The notes under the pieces: model-generated
The model's input: only the letters and a program-made list of their open reading frames with translations
Databases searched by the model: none
What the model was told of the DNA's origin: nothing
Program-made: the position numbers and the translations under genes
Assembly: GCA_010093705.1 (NCBI GenBank)
Contig: MU006094.1
Span: 967,550 to 1,031,549 of the forward strand
Length of the DNA: 64,000 nucleotides
Direction: 5' to 3'
From: Patellaria atrata CBS 101060
Taxonomy: Eukaryota
Shown: positions 16,857-59,547 of the stretch, one piece after another
Layout of the letters: each line of letters opens with the position of its first letter
How positions within the stretch are numbered: the first letter of the stretch is position 1

Positions 16857-17861
16857 CTAGGTAAACAGACCATCTGCGTACACCTCACGATCTTCTTGAG
16901 ATTCTGAATGGACATCGGTGGTTCCTTTAAGCTGGCTTTGACGTTCGAGACCTTCCGCGCGCTTGCGCCGCTTTCTAGCAGCACCGTCTTCCCAGCCTTC
17001 TGTATCGGCAGACGGGGGGGCGGACATGTTGTATAGTTTCAACAACTCCGCTCTAAATCTGTCAATTCGGGATTTGTTCACTCGGAATCTCTCGTTGCCC
17101 AACTGGACAAGGGTGTGCAGATATTCTTCGCTAACTATGGCGCATATCACGCCTTGTGACATCTGTTGACCTACGATTGAGTCAAACAAAAGCCCTGTAG
17201 AGCGGATTGCAACCATCGGAGTGATGGTACCGTCCGCTCGTGGGGAGAGCCCAACCGTGCCGCTCTCTCGAAATCCGGCTTGGAGTGCAGCCGACAGAAC
17301 GCGCTGCGCGTCATCCATAGATTTTGTCATTATATGCATGATCTATCACAAAGATGAGCAGACTCTGTAGCAAGAACTAGGGGTTTGTGCTAGTACCATT
17401 GGTTCAAACTTCAAGTGAACAAGGCTTATTCCCGATGAGAGACTGTAACGAGGGACAACTTCGTGTGGTCTAAGTCCAAAAAGACGAGTAAAGTGATCCC
17501 CCCAATTAAAACGATCTCCCTCATTCCGCTCCGGTACATCGACTGGAGAATGAGATACGAAAAGCCAGGTGCCGCCTCCTTTTCCGCCAGGACCTGCAAT
17601 TCCTGGAAGGTCTTTATCTTCGTTCTGTCTTGGGAGATCTTCTGGTGTGTCTTTCTTTCTTTTTCCTTCAAGAAAGACGCTAATTCTACCAGAACAACTA
17701 CTTGTAGTTACGAGACCTTCAATTGCATTGATATCATCAATCAGTGCTCGAATCGGTTCGTCTATAGATCCCTTTGGGGAGAGATCATTGTATTGAGCTT
17801 GTGGCACTGACAATTGCTTGAGGATCGTGGCCTTTCTGTGCTTGAAGGCCCCCATGGACAT
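16857..17861 (-). CDS. TYW3: tRNA wybutosine-synthesis methyltransferase Tyw3
   Basis: DLSPKGSIDEPI, TTSSCSGRISVF, WLFVSH, LKFEPM|IMHI, AGFRESG and MVAIRSTGL. One intron at about 17343-17397. Confidence 0.93.
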
Positions 17862-18111
17862 GATCGCACAAGCGTATCACTTGCAACTAATTTTCTTTGC
17901 TTGTTATTGAAAGTGAGGTTGGGGGAAAAGGAGGAAACGAAGCGAAGTCATGCGGCAGCGCGTTGGTTTGGCTCAGAGCCAAGGGTGAGATCATCGCCAA
18001 GAACGGATCTCAGACGCGCATCTCAACATGTACCTGGAGGAGGGGAGCAACTCCAACGATATTATTGAGAATTTCTTCTTGACTCCTAATACAAAGAGCC
18101 TATATCTGAAC

Positions 18112-30613: not shown

Positions 30614-32109
30614 ATGTACCCTCATCATTCGAGTACATCCGGACAGCCTCCATCTTGGAACACAACACCTCCAGTATCTCAAACTTCCTCAGCTGCTCCA
30701 AACGCTTCTTATCCACCTCCCCCCGGCTCATATCTTCCACCACCTCATCACACTCAAGTAAGTACAATACTATTGAAGATCTCAGTCCTTAACAATCCTC
30801 CGTATGGACCCGGCTTACCCATCTGATCAGCCGGCTCCCACTCCGCAACACTCAAGTATGGCCTCGACATATCCTCCACCTCATTCTGCTCAGCAACCAT
30901 ATCTACCATCTCCACACCAGTTATATCAAGACCAGTACCGTTCACAACCGCCTCCTTCAACTCACCCGCAATATTTAAATCATCAGTATCAGACAGCACA
31001 CGAACGGCAACCGCCACAGCAACCTGGAGCACGACAGAGGACTGCAATCGCATGTCGATACTGCAGAAGACGCAAGGTATTTCGTTTTGCATGCCAAGTC
31101 ATTTCACCGCCTCCTGACCGCTCATCCTTTGCAGATCCGATGTTCGGGCTTCGATGCGAATGAGGATGGACGTTGCACCAATTGTGTACGTTTTTCCCAA
31201 GAATGCGTTTTCACACCAGTTTCGGCGCAGACGCAAGCTTTCGTTCCCGCGCACGCTGCAGCGTATCGTGGTAATGGACCACTTCAGTACTTTGGACCTC
31301 ATGGAAACCCCCTTCCACGAGAAGAACAGCTGCGGATACACCAACAGCAGCAGCAGCAGCAGGCGGGTTATGCTCTCCCGAGCCCAACAGGTCCGTACAG
31401 TACCACCGCCCCTCCAAATGTTTCATACCCACCCTTCCCTGCCTACGACGACCGGAGCAGCCGTGACGTTCCGCCCCCCAGCTCAGCTTCTAGCGTGACA
31501 AGCACTAGCAGCCGCAAACGACCTGCCGACTCTCCTCATACGCCCACTCTTCCACCCCCAAATCCAGCGACGACGTCACAGCTGCCCGGTCCACGATCAG
31601 GCTCTTCACATGATGCTCACCCCACTCATGCATATCCCCCTCCTCCTTCAACTCATCAACATTACACTTATCCCGATCCCACCTCTCTAACCCCCGCCGC
31701 CGTGTCTCCAGCGTCGTCCGCCGCCTCCTATCACTCCAACGTCCACCCACCGCCGGGTGCTCAACCCCTGGCACAACCTTACTATGCGCCTCCTCCCCCG
31801 TCCACGACCAACGCAAACAGCATACCCATCCAACGTAGAGCGTCACCCCAGAGTCCGTATAGCTACGATCCCAGTCGCACGAGCTCATCGCCGCACACCC
31901 AAGGTGCACCAAGCACCCCCGGTACGAGCGCCAGCGCATATCATGATAGCGGATTAAGGCCACTAATTCGCTCTGATGGACGTACTCCACCTCCAAGCAA
32001 CGGGACAAGACCGGGTATCAGCATTTCCAGCATCGTAACGAATGATTCAGGCGGGAGAAGCGCGGCTGATAGTGACATGCTCAATGCGTTAAACAGGAGG
32101 GGTATGTAA
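30614..32109 (+). CDS. Zn(II)2Cys6 transcription factor, Pro/Gln-rich (tentatively McrA-like)
   Basis: RQRTAIACRYCRRRK|IRCSGFDANEDGRCTNCVRFSQEC fits CX2CX6CX10CX2CX6C. Introns at about 30758-30830 and 31077-31134. The McrA resemblance is from memory and unverified. Confidence 0.9.
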
Positions 32110-34118
32110 ATGCGGCGCAACTGGTGGTAAAAGTGCATTTGCAAGGGATCAAATGTTGAAATGGAGTAATAGGAAAGAGAAAGGTGCAATCTGTTCTGAG
32201 TGGGAGATCGGGGAAACCAGAGCTGGCTCTCCGGCTTCTTCGTTTCTTAAATTCACATATACTATCAATTCGCGACCTTTAAGCTCAAAGTTCTCGATTC
32301 GGAAGTAACATGGGGACTCAAGCCATCGAATGATGCTTCCATCCTTTCATCAGCCGAAAAAGGAAGTCACCACGCACGCTAGCTTCGATAAGGTCAAGAT
32401 TGAACATATGAGAATGCTTTCTCGAATCTATTTTTTCCACGGATACACTTCAGAAGCCAAAATTCACCACCGGCTCTCATCTTTTCTTTCTGTTTTTTCT
32501 TTAAATGGGCGGCTCTTATTTGCAGCGACTTCTGTCATTTCCCCGCGTTTTCATCTTTCCATCGTCGGTTCACTTGCTATTCCCACTCCACACGCGCGCG
32601 CTATCGTTCTTCAGGGTGGTACATCTGTCTCAGTTTTATAAGTTTTCGCACGCGTGCACACAAGTTTGTTAAGGGGGGGATTTTATATTTCCGAACTATA
32701 AATCGGGGATTTGGGGGGGGAGGGTTGGTATTACACTGCTTTTAATCTTTCCTCGAATGGTAAAAGCGGGTAGGGGGCCGGGGGCTTTTTGTTGGTTTTG
32801 ATTTTTTTTTTTTTTTTTTGTTTTTTTGTTTTTTTACCTCATAGCGTAGTGTTGCTGCTGTTACGAGTGGTGCGGGGGCTGCTTTTGCTTTGCGTGTTTT
32901 TGTTGGTTTTCGAGGATTGAGCATATCTGGTTTTTATTTTGTTGGTTGGTGGGTGAAGCGGAGTGGATGGAGTGGAAATGATGTACTGTCATTATAATAG
33001 TGGGATTTATTCTTGCTGACGTTATCTGTTGTGTTTCATGGTCGGAATCGAGCAGCGTTGTTGTTGTTGTGTGGCTGTTCTGTGGCCGTGAGTGACCGGT
33101 CCGACATAGTAGGAAGTTGTGGAGAGCGAGCGAACGTAATGTTGTTGCCGTCATACATGTGTGCATTTGAGCTTCATCCTTTGACTTTTTTGCATGAAAG
33201 CTGGTTTTCTATCCCAGGTGAACTCTGCCCGAGGAATATGACGGATGTACAATTCAATACAGTTCGAAACTAACTTCCCACGTGATCTATCTCCGCTTCG
33301 AAAACTCGAATCTGTACAACCCAATATCCCATCCTCTCCCTTGTAGCAAAACATGCAGACCCCTCGCCATGCAACCTTAAAGGTTCCCCACGTGCACTGT
33401 ACGGTACTCACAAAAGCAAAAAATAAAAATAAAAATAAAAATAGTAACGGACCGGTACCGTATTAGGGCGACGACCATGGCAACCAACAATAACAGCGGG
33501 AGAGCGGGAAGCGGGAAGGGCGGGAAGAGGGAGGAGGGGAAGTGGGTATAGCACGGATCGGGACGGCGATGCGAGATGCGAGACGATCAAACGTCGGGGT
33601 TGTCGACTTCACGCTGGCCCCGGAATTAGGAGAAATGGCGAGGTCGGAGGTCGAGACTGTACGGAGTTCAGGATGATTGTTTTTCGCGGAGACGGGAGCG
33701 GGAGTGGGGACGACGAGTGACTCGATACGATATGACTTGATATGACTTGATTGTCCCGGCCTCCCCGATCCCCGTTTTTGGTGGAGTTGGATGGTGGGGT
33801 TGTGGTGGGCTGGGACGTGGGTGCTGGGTTACGTGGATAGGTTCGGGTATGTAGATGGGTTCGGGTTTCGTGGATGGGGGTTAATTTCTTTTTTTTTTTT
33901 TTGGGGGGGGGGGGTTGGGACCGGGTTTGTTTTTGCTGCTCCTCTAGGAACGGGGGGAGGTCAGGGTTGATGTGGTATACCGCGTTCTGCGTGCGTAATC
34001 TAGGTTGGGATCTGGGGGTGTGGTCTGCCGTTTTCTTTGTCGTGTGGCCTAGAGGTTGGTATTGAGGAAGTGTGAGTATGGGTCGATGGTAAAGTTGGTA
34101 TGCTGGGGGGGAAGGGGA

Positions 34119-34197
34119 TATTGGGGATGGGGGTGTATTGGGGATAGGGGTGTATTAGGGATAGAGGTGTATTAGAGATAGGGGTGTATTAGGGATA
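34119..34197. repeat. 17 bp G-rich minisatellite, about 4.6 copies
   Basis: Units: tattggggatgggggtg / tattggggataggggtg / tattagggatagaggtg / tattagagataggggtg / tattagggata. Confidence 0.85.
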
Positions 34198-35771
34198 TGG
34201 GCTTATAGATGCATGAGGGTATGGGCATAGGTGAGAAGAAGGGTAAGGGGGACTACTACACTTAAGGTGCTCAGATAGAAGTTTTGGTCATTCACACTCT
34301 CTTGTTGATATGGAATAGGGCTGTGTTGTCGATTGTTTCGTAGGTTTCTTTACCGTCTCCCTCTCTCTCCCCCTCTCCTTCTCAATGTCTTTTCTCATAG
34401 TGGCTAGCTGTACTCATACTTCCTCTTTTTTCATCCCCTTTTTCCACCACTCATCTCCGTTCCCTCACATTACTGTCTGAAGATTGCTCCCGTGTGGGCC
34501 ACACGAGGATATCATCGCTCCTAAGTCGTGGAAGGGGGTGATATGTACAGTACCCGGGAAGAGTGAGTTGGTGGGGGAGAAAGTAAGGACGTAACTACGA
34601 GTCCTCCTCTTCGTCTTCTTCGTCTTCTTTTCTTTGTTGTCCAGATCTGACTCTAGTTCTGAGTCTGATTCTGGCTATGCTTCTGGGTCTGTGTTTGAGT
34701 AGGGATACATATGATTTGATTCCATACGACACTACTACAACAGCCACGGTCTACAGTTCGGGATACAGTTCGGTCCATGGTTCGGGATAGGGATTGTATA
34801 GGGATTGCGTAGAGCTCTCTGGATTTATCGCGTTCGGTGGTGTGTTTGAGTAAAATCTGCGGATACTGTCTGGTAAGAATGCTGTGGTATATGATTGGTA
34901 TGTGTAAAACTGTGTGGTTGGATGGAGATAGGGAATATGGTATGGAGTCCGGTTTAGTTTAGAATTTACGTGTTGCATTTCTTTTCATATCAGGGGTGGG
35001 ATTGGTATTCTAGTTTGAATATGTAATTGAGTAGGGTAAGGAGAGAGGTTGGGTGGTGGCTTTTACTATTATAGGTAGGTGAGGATGGGATGAAAATTGG
35101 AGAAGGGGAGAAAGTGAAAAGAGATGTTAAACGTCTAACATAGTGAGGTACTTTGGAACTTTTCGCTGGTTGGGGTGGGATGTGGTGTATCCCTTTCCTT
35201 AAGCTTGGAGATAAAGCTAAGGTTCGAGAAGGGAGTGTGGGAGGTGATGGGATTCCGAGTATGGTGTTGGATAGATGGTTGTAGGACAGATTGTAGACCA
35301 TGTAAGGAAGTTAGATCTATCAATGTGTTATGTGAACATCTTTGCCCTGTTGGGCTTGTGGCTCGTTGTTAGGCCACTGGAGATTTGTACCGGGCTGGAT
35401 ATGGGTTGGGATAAGCTGCTTTTTGGACAGTGTGTAATGGGTAGCGCATGGTGTATGTGTTTGTAGAGTCAGTCGATATCTGATAGTGTGGTTGTCCCCG
35501 AATACTCTAGAGCTGTCTATGCGTTTGCGAATTTTGTGGGTATGGGAATAGGGGTTGGTGAGGGTATGTATCCCTGATTAGCACCATCAACATGCAAGAA
35601 TCAATAATTTGGTCTGGTCCAGTGAATGGTATGTTGCTCCGGCTGGCATAGAAAGGTGGTTGTTGAGACGTGATAAAACTTACATTCGCCCGACCTTCCT
35701 TTTCTTTTACCACTTACACGGAGTGAGTGATGTATCCTTGGAAGAGAGGAGACGAGGGAGAGTACAGGATG

Positions 35772-35823
35772 AGCAGGGATAGAATAAGCAGGGACAGAAT
35801 AAGCAGGGATAGAATAAGCAGGG
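35772..35823. repeat. 15 bp tandem repeat, about 3.5 copies
   Basis: Unit agcagggayagaata. Confidence 0.85.
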
Positions 35824-36540
35824 TGTACAGATATGCAAAGGATACGGAAAGTCTCACAAAGTGGAAGCATCCGTGTGTAAAAGGGAACCAGACATGAACC
35901 TGAGAGGAGACGACTAGACGCTAGAGTGTAGTGATTGAAAGGATAGGATGATGAAAAGCTGAGTGCTGTGCATCGTTATCATCCTCGCGGATGCCTCTTC
36001 ATTCCGAGCCATAAGGATCTATTATAGCTCAATCAGAAGGGTCTCGAGAAGGGGATACAGTAATCCCAGAGTGATATGGCGAATCAAAAGATACTGTAAC
36101 ATACACCACAACTATTAGATGTTGCCCAGTGTCCGAGCGATAGTAAGGAAAGGGAATGAAAGGCGATATAGCACGACTGTATTCATCTACAAGAGCTACA
36201 CAGCAGCGCGTATCGAATTTTCGTAGTCCATAAACAAGACTACGCTCGATCACCAATGATATCCTACATAAGTGAAGAGTTTTAACCTAGCTAGCAAGAG
36301 GGTATCTAGCATTCCCTGGCGCCCTTTTTAATGCCCGAAACCTAACCGACTTCATAAGCCATGCTCCCTGATTCCTTTTCTGAAGATCGAAAACGCCTTA
36401 CGCCGAACCGAAAACCTATCCTGATGCTCATCCATGACATATCTAGCGACTTGTTATACAAGCCAACACCAAATATTCGTAACTCATCCGGGCCGCGCTA
36501 AAGGATGCTAAATACGAGACCCTTCCATCGTACACTTAAC

Positions 36541-39057
36541 CTAATAAATCTCAATTAGACTGTCACTCCCCGTTCCTGCACTTGTTTCACAGATTCCTCC
36601 AGAACCCGCAGTCGGTTGGTTCCTGATGCCGGGAGTTGCAGGCACCGACGCAGTACCGCCAGATGACGGGCGGGACCGTGAGATAGTGATAAGCTTGGGT
36701 CTAGCAGAGAGCGTCATCGGCTGGAGAGGGGGTGTCAAGCCTGTTCGAGTGGTAGTATGGCCGTAAGGCCGTGGTTCTCGCTTTTCTGGATACGACGAAA
36801 GTGATTTCCGCTCTTGATATTCCTCTGTGAGATCGATTACATCATGTTTGTCGGACGTAAGCTCATAGGCATTGCGTCGAGCACTTCCCCCCACACTCCT
36901 TTGTGGGACGTCCGCATCCTCGGTGAGATCATAAAACTGCGCCTCTTCCTCGTTGGTAATATCTGCCATACTGCCCATTTTCTGCTTTGCTTTCTTCATC
37001 CACCTTCCTCAGAATGCCGACAATATGTTCTAGGAAGATTTTCCAAATGCTCGGAGGTATGGCATTCCCGATCTGTTCCCTTACCTTCGTTTTCGACATA
37101 TCCGATGGGTATTTATGAAAATCTAGAAAGCCATTAAAACGTGCCAGTTTCCGATTTGTCCATCCACGCCTCCCGCCGTGATGATTCACTAACTTCCCGC
37201 TGCAAAATACCACCACAAGTAATGGTTGGCATAATATGTTTCTTAGGATCCCATACTTGGAAGTTACCGCGAGGCGCCGCGGCTATATCGTGATGATTAG
37301 AATTGGGAGGGATCTGGTATGGAAAATATAACGCATCATGTATGGTATGTGGTGGGCGAAGGATCCGGTCGTAACCTTTGGTCAGATTGTGCGTTTCGGG
37401 AGGAAAGTTCGGCTGTGGCTCACCCGGGCTGTGGTAGTTAGTAACAACGACTTTGGGGAACTTTGTAGATGGACATGAAGACTCACGCTGTTGCGATTAT
37501 CACTAATCGTTTTCTGTCCTGCGGCAGCCCGTACGCACAGAGGTTAATAACCTAAAATGCTACAGTGTAACCGAGGGAGATGAAATCCCCAATCAAGATG
37601 TTGAAGTAATTTGCGTGTCTTATTATTAGTCCGTCCGTCTGCTCCAGAATTACAACGCGTGGCCTTAGTTTCTCAACGATAGGTTTAATGGTGTACAGAG
37701 CTCTCCTGTTATCATCATCGTTCTTCTCTCTTTCCGGATTTCTGGCGTACAGATCCGCTGCTCTTTTCCGATATTTCATCCCTTTTAACCAATTGGCATG
37801 CGAAAAGTATTTGCAAGGAGGTGATAGGTGTAAAATATCACAGCTTCCTGAGAATGGATAATATATGAACGCCTCAGCGTTCATAGTAAATAGCTTTGCT
37901 TTCTGGAAATTCAGTTTATAAGATCTGCATACTTCGTGGCTGTTATCCATAGCGAAGAGAACGCGTATATCGGCCATCTCTGCTCCGCGGGATGCTCTTC
38001 CTGAGCAGCAGAACATGTCTGCGAATGTGTACTTCTGAGGCACATTTTGTTTGATCGGAACCCGTCGCTGCGAAGTATTTGCGTGTTGTTCCGCACCTAC
38101 GGCCTCCGTGGAGTAACGTCTAATGCCGACTAATATTCTTCTGATTGACCTATGTTTCTGTTTGTGGAATGGAATGTATTGGCTTCATGCGGTCGAATTC
38201 TCCGAAATACGCGCATATGGTCCTTACTGTTCGCCTTCTTCTCGATGGCATTCTTGTACATGGACATGCAGACATAGCGACATACGAGCTTGTAATTGTC
38301 CATGATATGCTGTTTCACGTTTGGTTCCTTGTCATCCCATCGGCTTGGATATTCGAATCGCTCAGCCGAGAAATCTAAAGAAGTTATTGTTAGAGTCCGT
38401 TTCTTAACAAGCCTCTTCAACCTAATGTCAGTCATTCCGTCCCCAATCGTACTGCTCGAATTACTCCCATAAACTTGGAGAATTAGGATAACTTCGTTAA
38501 GTTTCCTTGGAGGCATTGCCCCAAAACCACGAGTTCACTTGAATAAGTGCCCTCGTAGAAATATTTCCCCATTCATATCATTCTGAAAAATGTATCTGAT
38601 TTTAAGAAAATTATCACGCCGGGAATTGATTGTGTATTCCACGGCCAAGCCAGGGTATAAGTTGATACCATTGTACTGGTATGAGTCTATTGGGGTATGT
38701 TGGAAATACATCGAAGGATTATGGAAAGCCAACTCGGCCGCGGGCGTTGGATCTGTTCGGTTCTGGTCATGGAATCGCGAGTTCCGCAGAGTTGCTTCGT
38801 ACATTTCTTTTGGGATCTCGTCAATTTCATCATCAGAATTCCTGATCGACAGATCTTGTTCTAATTCAGACGACAGATCCTGGACTTCATCATCGGAATC
38901 TAAATCTCATATGTGGGGCTCTGGTGCGCGTGAAGGGTCATTAAAAGGCCCATCGATTTTTGTGCGCTTCGGCTGGTTTTTCAAATTCAGATTATTGACT
39001 CATTTGATTTGGAAGATGTACTGTACTTACGAGTTTGGAAGACATCATCTTCTTCAT
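36541..39057 (-). pseudogene. rid: RID/Masc1/DmtA-family C5-cytosine DNA methyltransferase, disrupted
   Basis: Motif I YTFADMFCCSGRASRGA, motif IV DILHLSPPC, family-diagnostic motif VI LEQT, motif VIII YGLPQDRKRL, TITCGG and motif X QIGNAIPP. Introns at 38973-39030 and 37429-37486. In-frame stops at 38907-38909, 38535-38537 and 37552-37554; frameshifts near 38135-38185 and 37200-37210. Confidence 0.88.
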
Positions 39058-40640
39058 CGTCTAGGATGCGTATGGGCTTGTTCGAACTAATATTTTGAAA
39101 TCCGGAGAGACTAAATCTTGTTGACAGAAAGAAACAGACAAACGGTGCGATGCTGACACTTCGCAGAAACGATGACTGCTTGGATAGAAAACTCGCGACA
39201 ACGAGTCAGTAACTCAAGGTAGGTCTTATTCCATGTTGATTGTTCAGTCAAAGAAAGAAACGAAGTAGGACTAAGCCTTGAAGGCTGTTTGACAAACAGA
39301 GAAGGTTGACTTGTTGAAACGGTCTGGTCGTCAAATAGAACTCGGGCGGGGACTTCCACCTGACCTTGACGGAAGAGACAAATAATCATGGGTCAAGATG
39401 ATTCCACCTTGTCGAACGGCTTCCATTTGGTTGTGTTAGTCTGAACACTTTAGAATTGACGTGCAGAAATAATAAAAGAATTAATCGACAAGTAAATAGA
39501 ATAGACATCACGTGAGACGGTAGATCTCTACGTAGTTTGATCAAGATTGTGATACATCACAACATATATACAGAGGAACAGAGTACTTCAAAATTGGGGC
39601 TACCTAATATACCATCGCGATGAGAAGTGGCTTACACGTGATGGGAACTCATGCTCTTCTACACAGTGGTCTCTGCACCTCGAGGCAAGTATATGCTCGA
39701 AGAACGCATCATATATAGGCAATGGCCAAAGTACTCCAGGGAAAGATTGCGAATATCGGTATTCTTCCTGCGGACACAATACAATATGGTACAGAATATT
39801 ACTCTCAAAGGAGGTCCGTTCTGAAGAAGACCCCATCAGCAATGCTAAGAACAACTCAATTCATAGTCTGTTCAAATGATTGCTCAATTTATGTGTGGAA
39901 TCAGCTGAACCCATGCCGGTAGAGATGGATAGACGAGAAGGAATGCTAAGAGACGGTATGGTTGTATTATTCGGCAACTAGTACCGGTTAGACCTTGATT
40001 GTCATATGCCAACATATAATGACATATCAAACCGCTATTTACAATCGGATGAACATCATACTCTACGGTGATACATGTAATGGTAACGTCGAAGCATCGC
40101 AAACAACGAGATGTAATCGCAGGAAGAGTAGTGGGTAGAAGGAGGAGGGTGATGAACATGTATAATTCCTGCATTCAACGCTCCATAGAGAAAAACCAAG
40201 GGATGTGAATGGAACGGGTGGGATTGAGAAATTGTCTGCTTATCAAGAGGAGGTGTAGTTGAAGTGAAGGGAGATCGCGTTAAAGTGTGGCGGGATATGA
40301 GTGCACGGGCCAGTGCCGTTTATGAACCAATCGGTGTGGGCAGGGAAGCTGCGGCAAAATCTTTCAGAGCGAAAAAACATCTAAATTGATCATGGAGAAG
40401 GTTTTCCCAAAAATTACTTCTAACAATGGGTTTGCATTTCGACCGTACAATCGAGAAGATCCTCTACCCTCTTTTACATCATCAACACATCTATCCTCCC
40501 TGATCGAACCATCCTAGATCCTATGCGAACCTGACCTATCTCTAAGTTCCTGCTGCCCGAAGCTATCGATATCATTTGAGGGAGATCACATATTGTAAGT
40601 CTCAGTGCCCCTTACCACTATGGCAGTGAACCCTATTCTC

Positions 40641-51864: not shown

Positions 51865-52006
51865 CACACCATGAATGAGCAAGGGAAGTCCAGCCGATAT
51901 GACGGCTTTGAATGATGACAGAATCCAACTCCACACCATTGAAGAAGCAAAGGGAGTCTGACCGACATGATGGACTTGAATGAGGACAGGATTCAACTCC
52001 ACACCA
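51865..52006. repeat. degenerate tandem duplication, period 67-68 bp, about 2 copies
   Basis: cacacca recurs at 51865, 51932 and 52000. tgaatgatgacagaatccaactc aligns with tgaatgaggacaggattcaactc. Confidence 0.7.
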
Positions 52007-52231: not shown

Positions 52232-54481
52232 TCAGAATCTGGAGCTCTTGCCGCTATTGTCATCTTCAAGGACAATGCTGAACTCCTCGTAACGGTTGAT
52301 GCCCATCCAACCCCAACCACCTTGCTTGGTCCTGACTAACTTAATGCGCTTCCAGAAATGAACCCTCTCACTGTCTTGCTCGAACAAGTTCTTCATGTTG
52401 GTGGCACTCCTGAGGTAGTGAGGTGAGAACGCGGTAGCGGCGATGCCGATGATACTAAGCCTGGCGTGGACCTCCGCAACTCCTTGAGTCTTATCCCAGC
52501 AAACAACGAACGCGTAGATACCCAGAGCGAGGGCGAGAAGTGCGTATGCTAGTGCGCTTCCACATAAGATGTAGTAAGGGATCTTCATGATATATAAGAT
52601 CGTGATGACATCCAAGGGTTGTGTGATCGGGATTGGTTTCGCAACACCTGCTACTGATGCAATCGCCATCATGCTGAATCTAGTCGCGAGAGATTGAGCG
52701 AAGAGTTCGACGGGCGGATCTTTGCGGGAAATTCGATCTAGTCCTTTGACGTTATTGGCGTGGAGATCCTGCAAGACGTTGTTCATCAATACGGATTTGA
52801 ATAAATTCTCACGACCGGAGCCTTCGCCGTCGAACATCGGTTTCAACAAGATATCCCGCACACTTTGATCAACGAGCGTCTGCTCAACGGCTTGATATTT
52901 GAGCCTGGGCTCATACGAGGGGAAGTACTCATATGTGACGTTGTAGACGAATGACCAGCACGCAAAGACCAAGATCAACGAGTTCTCTCCTGTCTCACCA
53001 TCACGATGAGCGAGGGAGCTGTTATAAGCCAGGTTGAAGGGTGCGAACTGCTGCGTAATATTCATCGGGGGTTTTGTGTGGATGAAGAATCCCCATCTAC
53101 GAAGGCTACTGATCTTATCTGCCTCATTGTTGAAATCCGTGAGCAAGTCGATCTCCGACGTGGTATTTTCGCGAATACGTGGGACAACGCAGCTGCCTTG
53201 ATGATTGCTCTTCGCACTCTCCCAGCACTTTCGAGAAACGGATAGGCATGAAGAGCTGATTCCGATAGCCTGTGACATGAACGACAAGTGTTCCTTGTCC
53301 AAAGCGGGGTCTGTAAGAATTGCAACTGGAGACAAACCATGACCGGCGCCCAGCATTGTGATTCGATTTTCGGAAGACTTATTCATCGACGTCATCCAAG
53401 ATTCATTTTGCGGGCTGGAAAGATCAGGACGAGTACCACAGTGCGGTTCATTAAGGTTTGTAGAATTGTAAATGGTCGAAACATTGGAAGTATAGCAGCT
53501 GTCGATGATATCCCGGCCGAACAGATGGACACGTTCGGGAGATGGCTTCTGCGCGTATCCAGATTTCGCAGTAGCGAAGATAGCAAGAGCCGAGCCAATA
53601 ATCATGATTCTATGATGAAGCAAAATTAGCAAGCTTGAACAGATAATCTTTTGGCCGCATCGTCATAGAGAATGCTTCTCAAGGAGGCAGCATTTCCGTT
53701 TTCACATTTGAGAATCATATGTCTTACATAATAATTATGTTGGAAATATCACTCGGCAGGATTCCTTTCGTGAGAAGCAGGATCACCGAGTGAAAGATTG
53801 ACAAATCATTCATTTTCTCTTTGCTTATTGTTGTTAGAAGAGACTGTTGAGGATAACGTACATGATGACCGCCAGGAGAAAATTAAGATAAACCGCATGA
53901 CGTATATACCGCTTGTGGCGTGCAAGACGGCCGAAGGGACGGGCGCCCGGTACCAGAGTCTGTTTGAATGCATCGAAAATCTTGAAATAGTCTCCGTAAG
54001 ATAGTTCAAGGAGAACAGCGATGTCGTAGGCTGTCGGGAGGGTGAGGCGGCCGTGTTTACGGTTTGTGAGGGTATCCGTGTCATCAAGCAATGCTTTCGC
54101 ACTCACGTAACGAAAGAGGTACCGCATAACCTGCAAGAAAATAACAGCAAAAACCGACAACAAGGCCGGTAGGACAAGGATAGTCGAAGCTTGCTCAGAG
54201 ATCGCCCAGAAGTCATTTCGACGCCATTTAGTATCCTTGGAAAGCTTGACGTCGATGTTTTTCAACGTAATGAGCGTTACGAGCGGAACGGTCAAGCCAA
54301 CCATGACGAGAACAACGATGCTGGCACGGATAAGATAGTCAAGCCATGGGCGACTTAGCTGATTGGGGGGGAGTGAGCTGCTCGTAGATTCGAAGACTGG
54401 GTTGATCAATCTGTTAGACTTCTTTACGGGTGGCAGATCATGCCCGAAGAAGACGCCATTTTCGAGCTGTTCTCCAGTCAT
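52232..54481 (-). CDS. hypothetical membrane protein with several TM segments and a Cys-containing, N-glycosylation-rich loop
   Basis: ORFs 53834-54481 and 52232-53632 join in frame through an intron at 53610-53861 (GTACGT...GCTAAT...TAG). Hydrophobic segments near both ends. Confidence 0.7.
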
Positions 54482-56055: not shown

Positions 56056-56255
56056 TTCGGTTTCGCGTTAATCGGAGATGAGGAAGCTGCAGAGAGTGAG
56101 AGTGGAAGTCAAGCCCATTTTGATGGAGTGGGTAGAGTAGCCCTGGACGGAAAGCCTGAAGCTACTCAGTGATACGTCCATACGAACATACGGTTGTAGA
56201 TGCTGGCACAGGGGAATGAGGTCGTATAATCCACCTTACTAAGCTGCCCGTCTTA

Positions 56256-58084
56256 ACGTGCTTTACCAGTCAGTGGGACACACCACTCAGTGGGACACCC
56301 CACCAAGATCAACCAGCGTTTTCATACAATTACTCCACTACAACAAAATATATTCAAATAAAATTATACTTAGGAGCTACTTGAGACACTAGTACATTGA
56401 CGCCTTGTGTGGCCTTGGATATGGCAGTTAGAGCACGTTGGTGCTGCTCGCTGTCGCGTCTGACCAGCCCAGTTCTGGTNNNNNNNNNNNNNNNNNNNNN
56501 NNNNNNNNNNNNNNNNNNNNNNNNNNNNNNNNNNNNNNNNNNNNNNNNNNNNNNNNNNNNNNNNNNNNNNNNNNNNNNNNNNNNNNNNNNNNNNNNNNNN
56601 NNNNNNNNNNNNNNNNNNNNNNNNNNNNNNNNNNNNNNNNNNNNNNNNNNNNNNNNNNNNNNNNNNNNNNNNNNNNNNNNNNNNNNNNNNNNNNNNNNNN
56701 NNNNNNNNNNNNNNNNNNNNNNNNNNNNNNNNNNNNNNNNNNNNNNNNNNNNNNNNNNNNNNNNNNNNNNNNNNNNNNNNNNNNNNNNNNNNNNNNNNNN
56801 NNNNNNNNNNNNNNNNNNNNNNNNNNNNNNNNNNNNNNNNNNNNNNNNNNNNNNNNNNNNNNNNNNNNNNNNNNNNNNNNNNNNNNNNNNNNNNNNNNNN
56901 NNNNNNNNNNNNNNNNNNNNNNNNNNNNNNNNNNNNNNNNNNNNNNNNNNNNNNNNNNNNNNNNNNNNNNNNNNNNNNNNNNNNNNNNNNNNNNNNNNNN
57001 NNNNNNNNNNNNNNNNNNNNNNNNNNNNNNNNNNNNNNNNNNNNNNNNNNNNNNNNNNNNNNNNTGACGTATGCGACGGCATGCAGAGGGTAATAATCTT
57101 ATTTTCCATACAGTATTGGTCAAATTCAGGCGTTGCGTGGCTACCATGACCGTCAAGTATAAGTAGACGGTAGATCCCCTTTGTATAAGACTTTGTACAG
57201 TTGTCAAAGTGCTTAATCCATTCGAATCCTAACTTATTTGTTGTCCAGCCATTATCGCTAACAGCGAGCATCCAGTCACCGGGTAGATCCTGATACCAGC
57301 TTGACTGGTGGAGCTTTCCTGGAAGGATAACGAAGGGCGGGATTGCCCACCCGGTGGCATTAATACATTCAATCACCGTTGACCATTCGCGATTGCCTGG
57401 TTGTATGAGAATTGCTCGGCCTATAGTATCAGAGCTTGTAACGACTTTTGATGTCGCAGATACACCCATCATAAATCCAGTCTCGTCAAAGTTGTAGCTA
57501 TCTTCGTCTAGGATGCCATACTTCTGGCGCGTCTCGTTTACACGCCCATACCACTCGCGAAATATGTCTCGATCTTCGCATTTCGCGCGTTGAGAATGGA
57601 ACTTCCTATTCCATTTTGTCTGTAGGTCTGGCTGGTTGTTGATAAAGCGGCATACCCAGTTCTTACCAACGGGTGTGGGAGGAGGATTCTGGCCGCGTGC
57701 CGCGAGTAAATGGTCTGCCATTCGTCGTACGTCGATGATATGGGGCGGAAATCCGCGTCGGTCGAGATCTAGGACCCATTCTACGAGCGCCTACTACTCA
57801 GATAGCTGTAGCTTTCGTTTTTGCGAATTAGACACGCTCTGAGGTGTTATGCCATGTACGCGACGATGGAGAGTAGACTTTGGAACATCGTACAATCCGG
57901 CGGCCTTCCGGACACTTGAAATTCTGTTTTCTTGAAGCGACTTAGTAGCAATAAGTAATCTACCTTCTTGCCGGAGCTTCTGAAGGTTCTGTGTTAGTGG
58001 CATTGTTGATTTTGTTGAAGACGTGGGGTGGTTTTGGTGGGATGTCCCACTGACTGGTGTGTCCCACTGACTGGTAAAGCACGT
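56256..58084 (-). mobile_element. Fot1/pogo-like DNA transposon (Tc1/mariner superfamily)
   Basis: TIRs of about 49 bp (acgtgctttaccagtcagtgggacacacca...) with 2 mismatches and internal direct repeats. TA target duplication at 56254-56255 and 58085-58086. N gap at 56480-57064. Confidence 0.95.
56370..58003 (-). pseudogene. Fot1-like DDE transposase interrupted by tandem TAG TAG
   Basis: HTH-psq (SVRKAAGLYDVPKSTLHRR), CENP-B-type region, YNFDETGF, LLILDGHGSH and C-terminal CCHC knuckle CSNCHIQGHTRRQC. Stops at 57791-57796. The centre is hidden by Ns. Confidence 0.85.
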
Positions 58085-59547
58085 TACCCGGGCCAACCTC
58101 ACCTCCTCTTTTAGGATGCAACATCTCCTTGATACTGTAGCTGTGCGTTCAATCATTATATTTCAATATACACGGTGTGATGATACTGGGAATACATAGA
58201 CAAAATTGATGCAATCATGCAAAGGACTATGAGATCAAACTAACATCCTCGCCAAGCATCATCCCCACGTTGAAGCGAAAGGTGTTACCCCTTTTGCCTT
58301 TTGTAGGTAATATAGGTTCACCACCTCATCCGCATCTCCTATTGTCTAATAATCCTTCTAGACGTATTGTACTCACTATCCAAACCTCTCCACTGATCTC
58401 CCGAGTGGCGAGGGCGATAGATTGGAATCTTCTTTGTCACTAGTCGATTTCCTACCAGTAGTGTTATGGTCTACAGTTAGCTGCCAGTTCACATCTGTAG
58501 TTTCGTTTTTTATGACACCTGTAAAGACCATTATATTTCTGTCTTTTGGTCTCTTGAATATTTTTTTTCCCCTAGAACCGTAATAGCAATCTGATTCGCA
58601 TTGTCCAAAACGTCCATGACTCCGTTGATATCTAAACATAAAGTTGTCGAAAGTATATACAGCTTGTCCTAAAGCGGATCACCTAAGCATCATCTCGTTC
58701 TTATCATGGTGGCGACACTTCCGCCATATGTAACAAACTCGACTGTCCCAAAACCCGCAGTTGCACAGAGGCTCAAGTTGTGATTCAGAGTATCCCTTGT
58801 CACCCGACTTAACTTAACCAAACAATAATTTCAGGCTTACCGTTGTCAATCTCACGGCGGTCTTATTGCAATGGTTTATGTATTCAGTCCTTTCCCTCCT
58901 CTACATTTTCCAGAGATTGGTTTCATAATCGTTAGTGGTGGAGAAGTTCCAAAAGAAAGTTTCAGTACTTTCAAAAGCAGACCTTATTTCCTAGTCACCA
59001 TCGGGTGGTTTTAATATTTCGAGATCTTCAATTGTAGGGAACTTAGTCATTAAACTGTTAAAAGTTACCTCTACTGTGTGGCTCGCTCGAGTTCTACAAG
59101 CTCATCGACACCTTACTCCAAAAGTATACACTCGCAAGGTGGATTATGAAAGAGAATTCGAACTTTATGACATTACAGGGAATGCTAGCTGACCATATCT
59201 AGGCTATTGTCATGTGAGAATGGCTTGGGTCGATTTATGCTTCACTGGTTAGAGGTGATCGCCACTGTTTCGTCCACCTGCCTATGTGGGATGGTTTTAG
59301 AAATTGCTCGAATTGAAGGCGGAGGGCAGATATGTATGCATAGTTCGTATCACCTTGGAAATAGACCAGAATGTGAGTTAAAGGATTCCCATTATGAACA
59401 GTTGTTGATACCTTGGGATAGTAATACGCAATGGACATTTTATTCAGCTCAAATCTCACAATACGATCATCACATGGTCACCGAATCCAACATCCTTTTC
59501 AGTAAATTTTCATCATGAGATCCAGTCCAAGGTAGTGAGATACGTCC

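Follow-up and report, generated by a model that had tools for sequence, protein, structure and literature searches.

The locus and its family assignment

The sequence considered here is a stretch of 64,000 nucleotides from Patellaria atrata CBS 101060 (GenBank assembly GCA_010093705.1, contig MU006094.1, positions 967,550 to 1,031,549; 'the window' below, position 1 being its first letter), and the element under study is a gene in pieces on its minus strand, between 36541 and 39057. The gene is of the RID/Masc1 type of C5-DNA methyltransferase, the type to which the RID protein of repeat-induced point mutation (RIP) belongs, and its homology is split over three reading frames (f0, f1 and f2). 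An original prediction, made from the letters of the window, had described it as a multiply disrupted pseudogene with the DNA methyltransferase motifs in order, among them a motif VI of the EQT type; the profile matches and the sequencing data described below bear out both parts of this description.

The Pfam profile DNA_methylase (PF00145) recognises two open reading frame (ORF) pieces on the minus strand, one at 37552-38184 (profile positions 1-138, expectation value (E) 4.3e-14) and the other at 36929-37282 (positions 269-322, E 3.7e-4). A family profile made from 11 intact RID-family proteins was searched against all three frames of the minus strand, in which stops were written as X, and gave matches that follow one another in order: positions 37-269 in f2 (E 6.8e-31), 221-486 in f1 (E 5.3e-74), 486-557 in f2 (E 1.2e-12) and 551-625 in f0 (E 6.1e-21). 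The frame map obtained with a second profile, of 19 proteins of the Dothideomycete clade, was identical (E 2.9e-38 for the N-terminal domain), and in-order matches of this kind across frames are not a matter of chance.

Motifs I, IV, VI, VIII, IX and X of PF00145 are all present in order, and FCCSGR, SPPCK, ILEQT, TITCGG, RKLA, GFL and GNAIPP can all be read at the locus. The catalytic Cys of PPC is retained; motif VI reads VVILEQTDGL (37656-37627), with Glu 433 and Thr 435 in agreement with the family columns. According to passages of PMC6709928, two features set the Masc1/RID group apart, an EQT (or EET) triad instead of ENV and a short target-recognition domain (TRD) of ~80 residues. The TRD of the locus, measured from motif VIII to motif IX, has 92 residues including one X, versus 83, 87 and 91 in the intact proteins P0152, P0155 and P0179, and the N-terminal domain common to the relatives (LRG, PRKLNEV, KRxLxIT, LVCR) is found as well. 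When the piece bearing motifs I-VI was used in a full-library HMMER search, 1052 proteins were matched at E <= 0.001, those with names including 'rid1 [Metarhizium robertsii]' and the Sordariales 'putative DNA methylase essential for RIP'. Judged by its PF00145 match, EQT triad, short TRD, N-terminal domain and place in the tree (see below), the locus is a member of the RID/Masc1 group. On the opposite strand, the N-terminal stretch of the pseudogene is overlapped by a 167-aa open frame (38587-39090, plus strand), probably a spurious one, to which no Pfam profile matches.

One interruption of the coding sequence is not a lesion. The 58 nt between 37486 and 37429 (minus strand) form a genuine phase 2 intron with GTGAGT, TACTAAC and CAG signals that the original prediction had missed; with its removal VIIATAPGEPQPNFPPETH is restored, versus VIMASAPGIPTPEFPKPTH in P0152, and the spliced sequence, IIATAPGEPQPNFPPETH, is collinear with the relatives.

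Breaks in the reading frame

At each change of frame all GT..AG candidates were enumerated to test introns as the explanation of the break. The stops and frame changes are listed, with the other features of the locus, in Table 1; the stops claimed at 38907, 38535 and 37552 are all in place, the latter two being firm lesions in conserved blocks and the first depending on the gene model.

Table 1. Features of the RID/Masc1-type locus, ordered along the minus strand (window coordinates)
Feature	Position	Strand	Evidence and remarks
Whole RID/Masc1-type DNA methyltransferase pseudogene	36541..39057	-	In-order three-frame profile matches and three-frame display; upper end uncertain, lower end set by the TAA that closes the C-terminal tail
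Putative first exon (MKKMMSSKL)	39031..39057	-	ATG of the original prediction; no homology support, N-terminus unconserved in the family
Putative 58-nt intron (GTAAGT..CAG) joining ATG 39057 to f2	38973..39030	-	Sequence signals only
In-frame TGA in acidic, unconserved N-terminal stretch	38909-38907	-	Profile alignment begins just downstream; possible lesion
RID-specific N-terminal domain, f2 (FLKIRYIF, LRG, PRKLNEV, KRTLTIT, LVCRY, RVFRRIRPHEAN)	38160..38906	-	Profile E 6.8e-31 and 2.9e-38
TGA nonsense codon (LFK*TR vs RTR in relatives)	38537-38535	-	Arg in 163/174 homologues at that profile column; firm
Frame change f2 to f1 before motif I	38184-38133	-	Probable indel; alternative is a weak 53-nt intron, 38149-38097
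Catalytic motifs I-VIII, f1	37489..38031	-	PF00145 E 4.3e-14, profile E 5.3e-74
FCCSGR; SPPC; EQT; QDRKRL	38013-37996; 37824-37813; 37644-37636; 37521-37504	-	Motif positions, f1
AGA (Arg) at last Gly of motif I	37996..37998	-	Gly in 192/192 homologues
TAG nonsense codon between motifs VI and VIII (GYTVAF*VINL vs GYSLRWKIMKF)	37554-37552	-	Firm; public gene model ends there
Short target-recognition region, f2, TITCGG at its end	37209..37427	-	Profile E 1.2e-12
Frameshift f2 to f0, conserved block before motif IX	37208-37196	-	Firm; f2 and f0 profile matches overlap (551-557)
Motifs IX and X, f0 (TNRKLARFNGFL, QIGNAIPPS)	36983..37195	-	Profile E 6.1e-21
Frame change f0 to f1 in C-terminal tail	37008-36929	-	Indel, or intron such as 36971-36899 (GTATGG..AAG)
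C-terminal tail, f1, DVIDLTEE motif, TAA end	36541..36969	-	155-codon open frame; weak resemblance to relatives' tails

The context of the TAG, GYTVAF*VINLCAYGLPQDRKRL, is collinear with GYSLRWKIMKFVDYGIPQDRKRL of P0152, and the frame change at 37208-37196 sits between TITCGG (f2) and KLVNHHGGRRGWTNRKLARFNGF (f0). The latter is a frameshift, at the place where one had been predicted, because the f2 and f0 matches overlap and every intron candidate costs conserved residues: an intron at 37196-37208 was considered and rejected when all seven frame-fixing GT..AG candidates proved to remove such residues. Indeed, neither the stops at 38535 and 37552 nor this frameshift can be spliced away without the loss of conserved motifs.

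The remaining breaks are graded lower. That the frame changes before motif I, as had been claimed, is plain from the profile matches; that the change is an indel is most likely, the alternative being the 53-nt candidate intron (GTCAAT..TAG), which has a poor donor and is the sole one sparing the conserved RR....EA block. The frame change in the C-terminal tail, absent from the original prediction, is a probable lesion, in a tail that is unconserved, where several GT..AG introns would fit and f1 stays open for 155 codons. The TGA at 38909-38907 is possibly a lesion, provided that the gene truly starts with ATG 39057, followed by the 58-nt intron (39030-38973).

Missense changes and relaxed constraint

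Apart from its breaks, the pseudogene (hereafter also the relic) carries changes at sites that hardly vary in the family. The RKLA for RELA and GFL for GFP pointed out earlier are both present: the Glu of motif IX (T.RE.A), found in 95 of 95 homologues, has become Lys (AAA, 37150-37148), and the Pro of GFP, found in 93 of 95, has become Leu (CTA, 37126-37124). The erosion of motif I claimed on the basis of FCCSGR is real only for its last residue, the Gly to Arg change, since FCCSGG is native in the sister Coniosporium proteins and the rest of the motif is thus undamaged.

These single changes are part of a broader pattern. Fifty-seven columns from the N-terminal domain through motif VIII are conserved in at least 85% of 192 homologues, and the relic has kept 42 of them (74%); the 178 homologues with enough coverage keep at least 81% of the same columns, with a median of 96%, and the Coniosporium proteins keep 84%. 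In the C-terminal half the relic retains 24 of 30 conserved columns, and its end branch in the FastTree tree measures 1.04, versus a median of 0.38. A retention below that of all 178 homologues, the loss in the C-terminal half and the long end branch together argue for relaxed constraint. Synonymous sites are saturated, given that the nearest intact relative is merely 41-46% identical.

The lesions in sequencing data

Assembly error, against which the original prediction had advised checking, does not account for these lesions. The Logan contigs of two sequencing runs, X1 and X2, each span 36300-39400 in one piece, with no other letters and no gaps, and show 0 differences over 3101 bases at mean word depths of 314 (X1) and 462 (X2). 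X1 and X2 are one sample from one study, possibly the source of the assembly and not an independent strain; the two re-assemblies are identical to the locus. The lesions thus do not stem from assembly error, and errors of the original assembler are excluded. Genes nearby have long clean ORFs, such as one of 1388 aa with WD40, RWD and RING domains, and the pieces of ATG22, TYW3, a sugar transporter, PIP5K and GH76 near the locus have strong Pfam matches.

The public gene model

In GenBank the locus is represented by KAF2839821.1 (P0003 in the searches), a 267-aa 'S-adenosyl-L-methionine-dependent methyltransferase [Patellaria atrata CBS 101060]' and the best match, at 98% identity. All of its residues (267/267) map exactly to the locus in three pieces, 38516-38226, 38094-37933 and 37902-37555. 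The model takes as its start an internal Met just past the TGA at 38535 and ends at the TAG at 37552; a 131-nt 'intron' (38225-38095) bridges the frame change and in doing so cuts out RVFRRIRPHEAN, the family's conserved G..RR....EAD, and a further 30 nt are skipped as another 'intron'. Motifs VIII-X are missing, and Arg stands at the invariant Gly of motif I. From the way its pieces fall, KAF2839821.1 is evidently an annotation artefact stitched from the relic, though it is listed as a working enzyme, and surveys that score presence or absence by BLAST thresholds could take it for a RID gene.

Orthology and copy number

A FastTree tree with 178 rows and 287 columns, drawn without a DIM-2 or Dnmt1 outgroup, places the relic as the sister of three Coniosporium rows (support 87) within a clade of 21 rows (support 98); the RID proteins of Sordariales and rid1 of Metarhizium fall in neighbouring clades. 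The ten members of the 21-row clade that were looked up include six Dothideomycetes (Cenococcum, Phyllosticta, Aulographum, Zopfia, Lojkania and Massariosphaeria), and the clade also holds the lichenised Arthoniomycete Chrysothrix as well as Diplodia and Coniosporium. The closest intact relatives are W97_05538 of Coniosporium apollinis (P0152) and H2199_008374 of C. tulheliwenetii (P0168). Common to the relic and Coniosporium are motif I in its FCCSG form, EQTDGL and ~18 residues inserted after motif IV; the relic is 46% identical to P0001 (same 90% cluster) over the piece with motifs I-VI and 41% identical to P0152 over 282 tree columns. The Coniosporium proteins differ from it in being intact, with 752 and 754 aa, and in their better retention of conserved columns. 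Two RID-like proteins in the database come from Zopfia rhizophila, P0015 and P0212, which are distinct and both marked partial; the genome of that species has 152.8 Mbp, and the term RIP has 0 occurrences in the paper reporting it (PMC7082219).

The region around the locus is gene-dense, repeat-free and of housekeeping character, and neither direct repeat families of at least 60 nt nor transposon domains were found in the window. Beyond P0003, the all-against-library HMMER search with the motif I-VI piece found no protein above 46% identity, and in the family-profile search P0003 was the sole Patellaria atrata entry among 28 matches.

RIP signatures at the locus and in the window

Sequences mutated by RIP are usually recognised by TpA/ApT of at least 0.89, (CpA+TpG)/(ApC+GpT) of at most 1.03, a composite index above 0 and a lowered GC content. 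At the locus these measures are 0.66, 1.23 and -0.57, the opposite of a RIP signature and outside the usual range for RIP-mutated sequence, and GC is 0.458, compared with 0.473 for the window. Eight single-step transitions at conserved sites, inferred by hand from codons and flanking bases, fall in the contexts CpA (two, one of them uncertain), CpG (one), CpT (two) and CpC (three), and several further changes are transversions.

Two other candidates for RIP in the window were considered and set aside. A block of low GC at 56-58 kb owes its appearance to a gap of 585 N (56480-57064). When 1-kb windows were slid along the sequence, 9 of 64 passed the three thresholds, all of them weakly and none AT-rich, the best (29-30 kb) having a composite index of 0.50 at a GC of 0.50. 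A 71-nt inverted repeat (89% complementary; arms at 56254-56324 and 58016-58086) flanks the gap at a distance.

Probable decay in place and its alternatives

How did the gene come to its present state? We consider it probable that the locus is the orthologous Dothideomycete RID (Masc1/DmtA) gene, decayed in situ, with ordinary point mutations and small indels having presumably eroded the orthologue where it stands. Several points weigh against this account. Three of the six breaks hinge on choices of gene model that RNA data could overturn, the one sample examined may represent a strain-specific state, and the sisterhood with Coniosporium rests on an SH-like (Shimodaira-Hasegawa-like) support of 87, with FastTree joining two long branches. 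The word-indexed searches are, moreover, insensitive (27 and 28 matches among 8000 scored candidates), so that their silence is weak evidence, and an intact paralogue, either below ~46% identity or unannotated, may lie elsewhere in the genome. Were that so, the locus would be a dead duplicate, i.e. a decayed redundant paralogue of a functioning RID gene. Duplicates do occur in the class, as the two RID-like proteins of Zopfia rhizophila (P0015, P0212) attest, and the divergent sub-branch made up of the relic and Coniosporium, with its unusual motifs, could in principle represent a lineage of paralogues; against this, every other named species of the 21-row clade is present once, the word-indexed searches brought up no second protein of Coniosporium or Patellaria, nothing above 46% identity was found, and a repeat or transposon context is missing. 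We therefore regard a dead duplicate as unlikely, and decay of the orthologue in situ as the likelier of the two.

Inactivation by RIP itself, following a transient duplication, had been raised in the original prediction and would fit the C to T and G to A changes seen at conserved sites (R149 stop, P205S, G331R, G340D, T431I, E572K and P580L), and it has a precedent in DIM-2 of Zymoseptoria, which was lost after amplification according to passages of PMC7882544. This explanation is disfavoured by the indices (TpA/ApT 0.66, substrate index 1.23), by a GC of 46%, like the 47% of the window, by the context of the transitions, only two of eight being in CpA, and by the indels, which RIP does not make; nor is there a second copy or repeat nearby, and we find it hard to give this origin any real weight. 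It is just as hard to believe in an error of sequencing or assembly, or in mutations gained in culture by the sequenced strain alone. A single sample, perhaps the very source of the assembly, leaves room for such a view, which is nevertheless at odds with two runs free of differences at word depths of 314 and 462, and with damage that would need far longer than the time in culture: five or more independent breaks, missense changes where the family is invariant, and a long branch. Finally, some non-catalytic function might have survived in the transcript or in a truncated product such as the 267-aa model, seeing that open pieces of 120-210 codons persist and that GenBank annotates a 267-aa protein; however, the model begins after a stop, needs both a block-deleting 'intron' of 131 nt and another of 30 nt, stops at the TAG, and is devoid of motifs VIII-X with Arg at the motif I Gly, which makes a retained function very improbable.

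Consequences and comparison with known systems

As its frame map shows, the relic is unable to make an active enzyme, since translation from any start stops short of a complete catalytic domain. Its longest piece holds motifs I-VI only, with Arg at the invariant Gly of the S-adenosylmethionine-binding motif I, and motifs VIII-X sit behind a stop and a frameshift. It would follow from decay in situ that the RID-dependent branch of RIP, and any RID-dependent step of sexual development, no longer work in this lineage; whether RIP as a whole has been lost depends on DIM-2. The loss of sex raised in the original prediction finds no support in these data. Patellaria atrata was described from apothecia, its sexual morph, and is known mainly from sexual fruit bodies. 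It is conceivable, if on balance doubtful, that the species is without any working RID, that RID is dispensable for sex there, as in Neurospora, and that its defence relies on DIM-2 alone or RIP has been lost.

The known members of the group, RID of Neurospora crassa, Masc1 of Ascobolus immersus, DmtA of Aspergillus nidulans, PaRid of Podospora anserina and rid1 of Trichoderma reesei, have in common with the relic the C5-DNA methyltransferase fold, the EQT triad, the short TRD and the N-terminal domain; in contrast to the relic, with its stops, frameshifts and changes at invariant sites, they are intact and, by the accounts in parts of PMC11381340 and PMC6709928, needed for RIP, methylation induced premeiotically (MIP) or sex. 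In four of the five species tested, i.e. Ascobolus, Aspergillus nidulans, Podospora and Trichoderma but not Neurospora, RID orthologues are needed for sexual development, and dim2 and rid1 of Trichoderma are redundant on some targets (excerpts of PMC11381340); RIP mediated by RID and by DIM-2 may each be dispensable (excerpts of PMC7882544), and a way to RIP by DIM-2 is on record in both papers. If the gene described here is the only copy, the lineage of P. atrata would, like Neurospora and in contrast to Ascobolus, Aspergillus, Podospora and Trichoderma, do without RID for sex. As a natural knockout that has been mapped, in a Dothideomycete that is not a pathogen, it would then offer a test of RIP through DIM-2 alone and of sex without RID, and so nearly full-length a relic would make it possible to date the loss and to compare it among the Patellariales.

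The loss of RID is in itself already known. Nearly all surveyed Pezizomycotina have RID: among 58 Ascomycota, sections of PMC7882544 name the powdery mildew Blumeria as the only member of the Pezizomycotina without it, and it lacks DIM-2 as well; most Pseudocercospora are without RID orthologues, and the RIP machinery has commonly been lost in ascomycetes (parts of PMC13041039, 2026). These are likewise natural losses of RID in Pezizomycotina, Dothideomycetes included, although in the parts of the two sources (PMC7882544, PMC13041039) that bear on them they are recorded as absence or fragmentation by BLAST thresholds, whereas the relic is nearly full-length, mapped lesion by lesion and placed in a gene-dense, repeat-poor region. 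DIM-2 of Zymoseptoria tritici (MgDNMT) is likewise a pseudogene of a genome-defence methyltransferase in a Dothideomycete (passages of PMC7882544 and PMC6710886), and differs from the relic in having many amplified copies with RIP transitions; the relic is a single copy with indels and without a RIP signature. A literature search found no paper linking Patellaria atrata with RID or methyltransferases, and the name Patellaria has 0 occurrences in the main text of PMC7882544, a count that leaves aside its Supplementary Table S3. What is new is a well-mapped relic in Patellaria atrata and the correction of a public annotation.

Other features of the window

The window shows a strong strand asymmetry, with a GC skew of -0.37 at 30-32 kb followed by +0.21 and +0.35 at 32-36 kb. 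A 376-aa ORF at 30979-32106 (plus strand) is of low complexity, rich in Pro, Ser, Thr and Gln, with CTNCVRFSQEC near its start and no Pfam match; short tandem repeats occupy the G-rich stretch downstream of it, at 34108-34201 (period 17/34) and 35764-35823 (period 15/30). Just downstream of another ORF without a Pfam match, at 52235-53662 (minus strand), lies a tandem repeat (51865-52006) of period 68 with 2.1 copies and 80% matches. The TYW3 tRNA-wybutosine methyltransferase gene at 16860-17876 (minus strand) is split between two adjacent ORFs, 17349-17876, which covers profile positions 2-120, and 16860-17342, which covers positions 118-210, and the split looks like an ordinary short intron.

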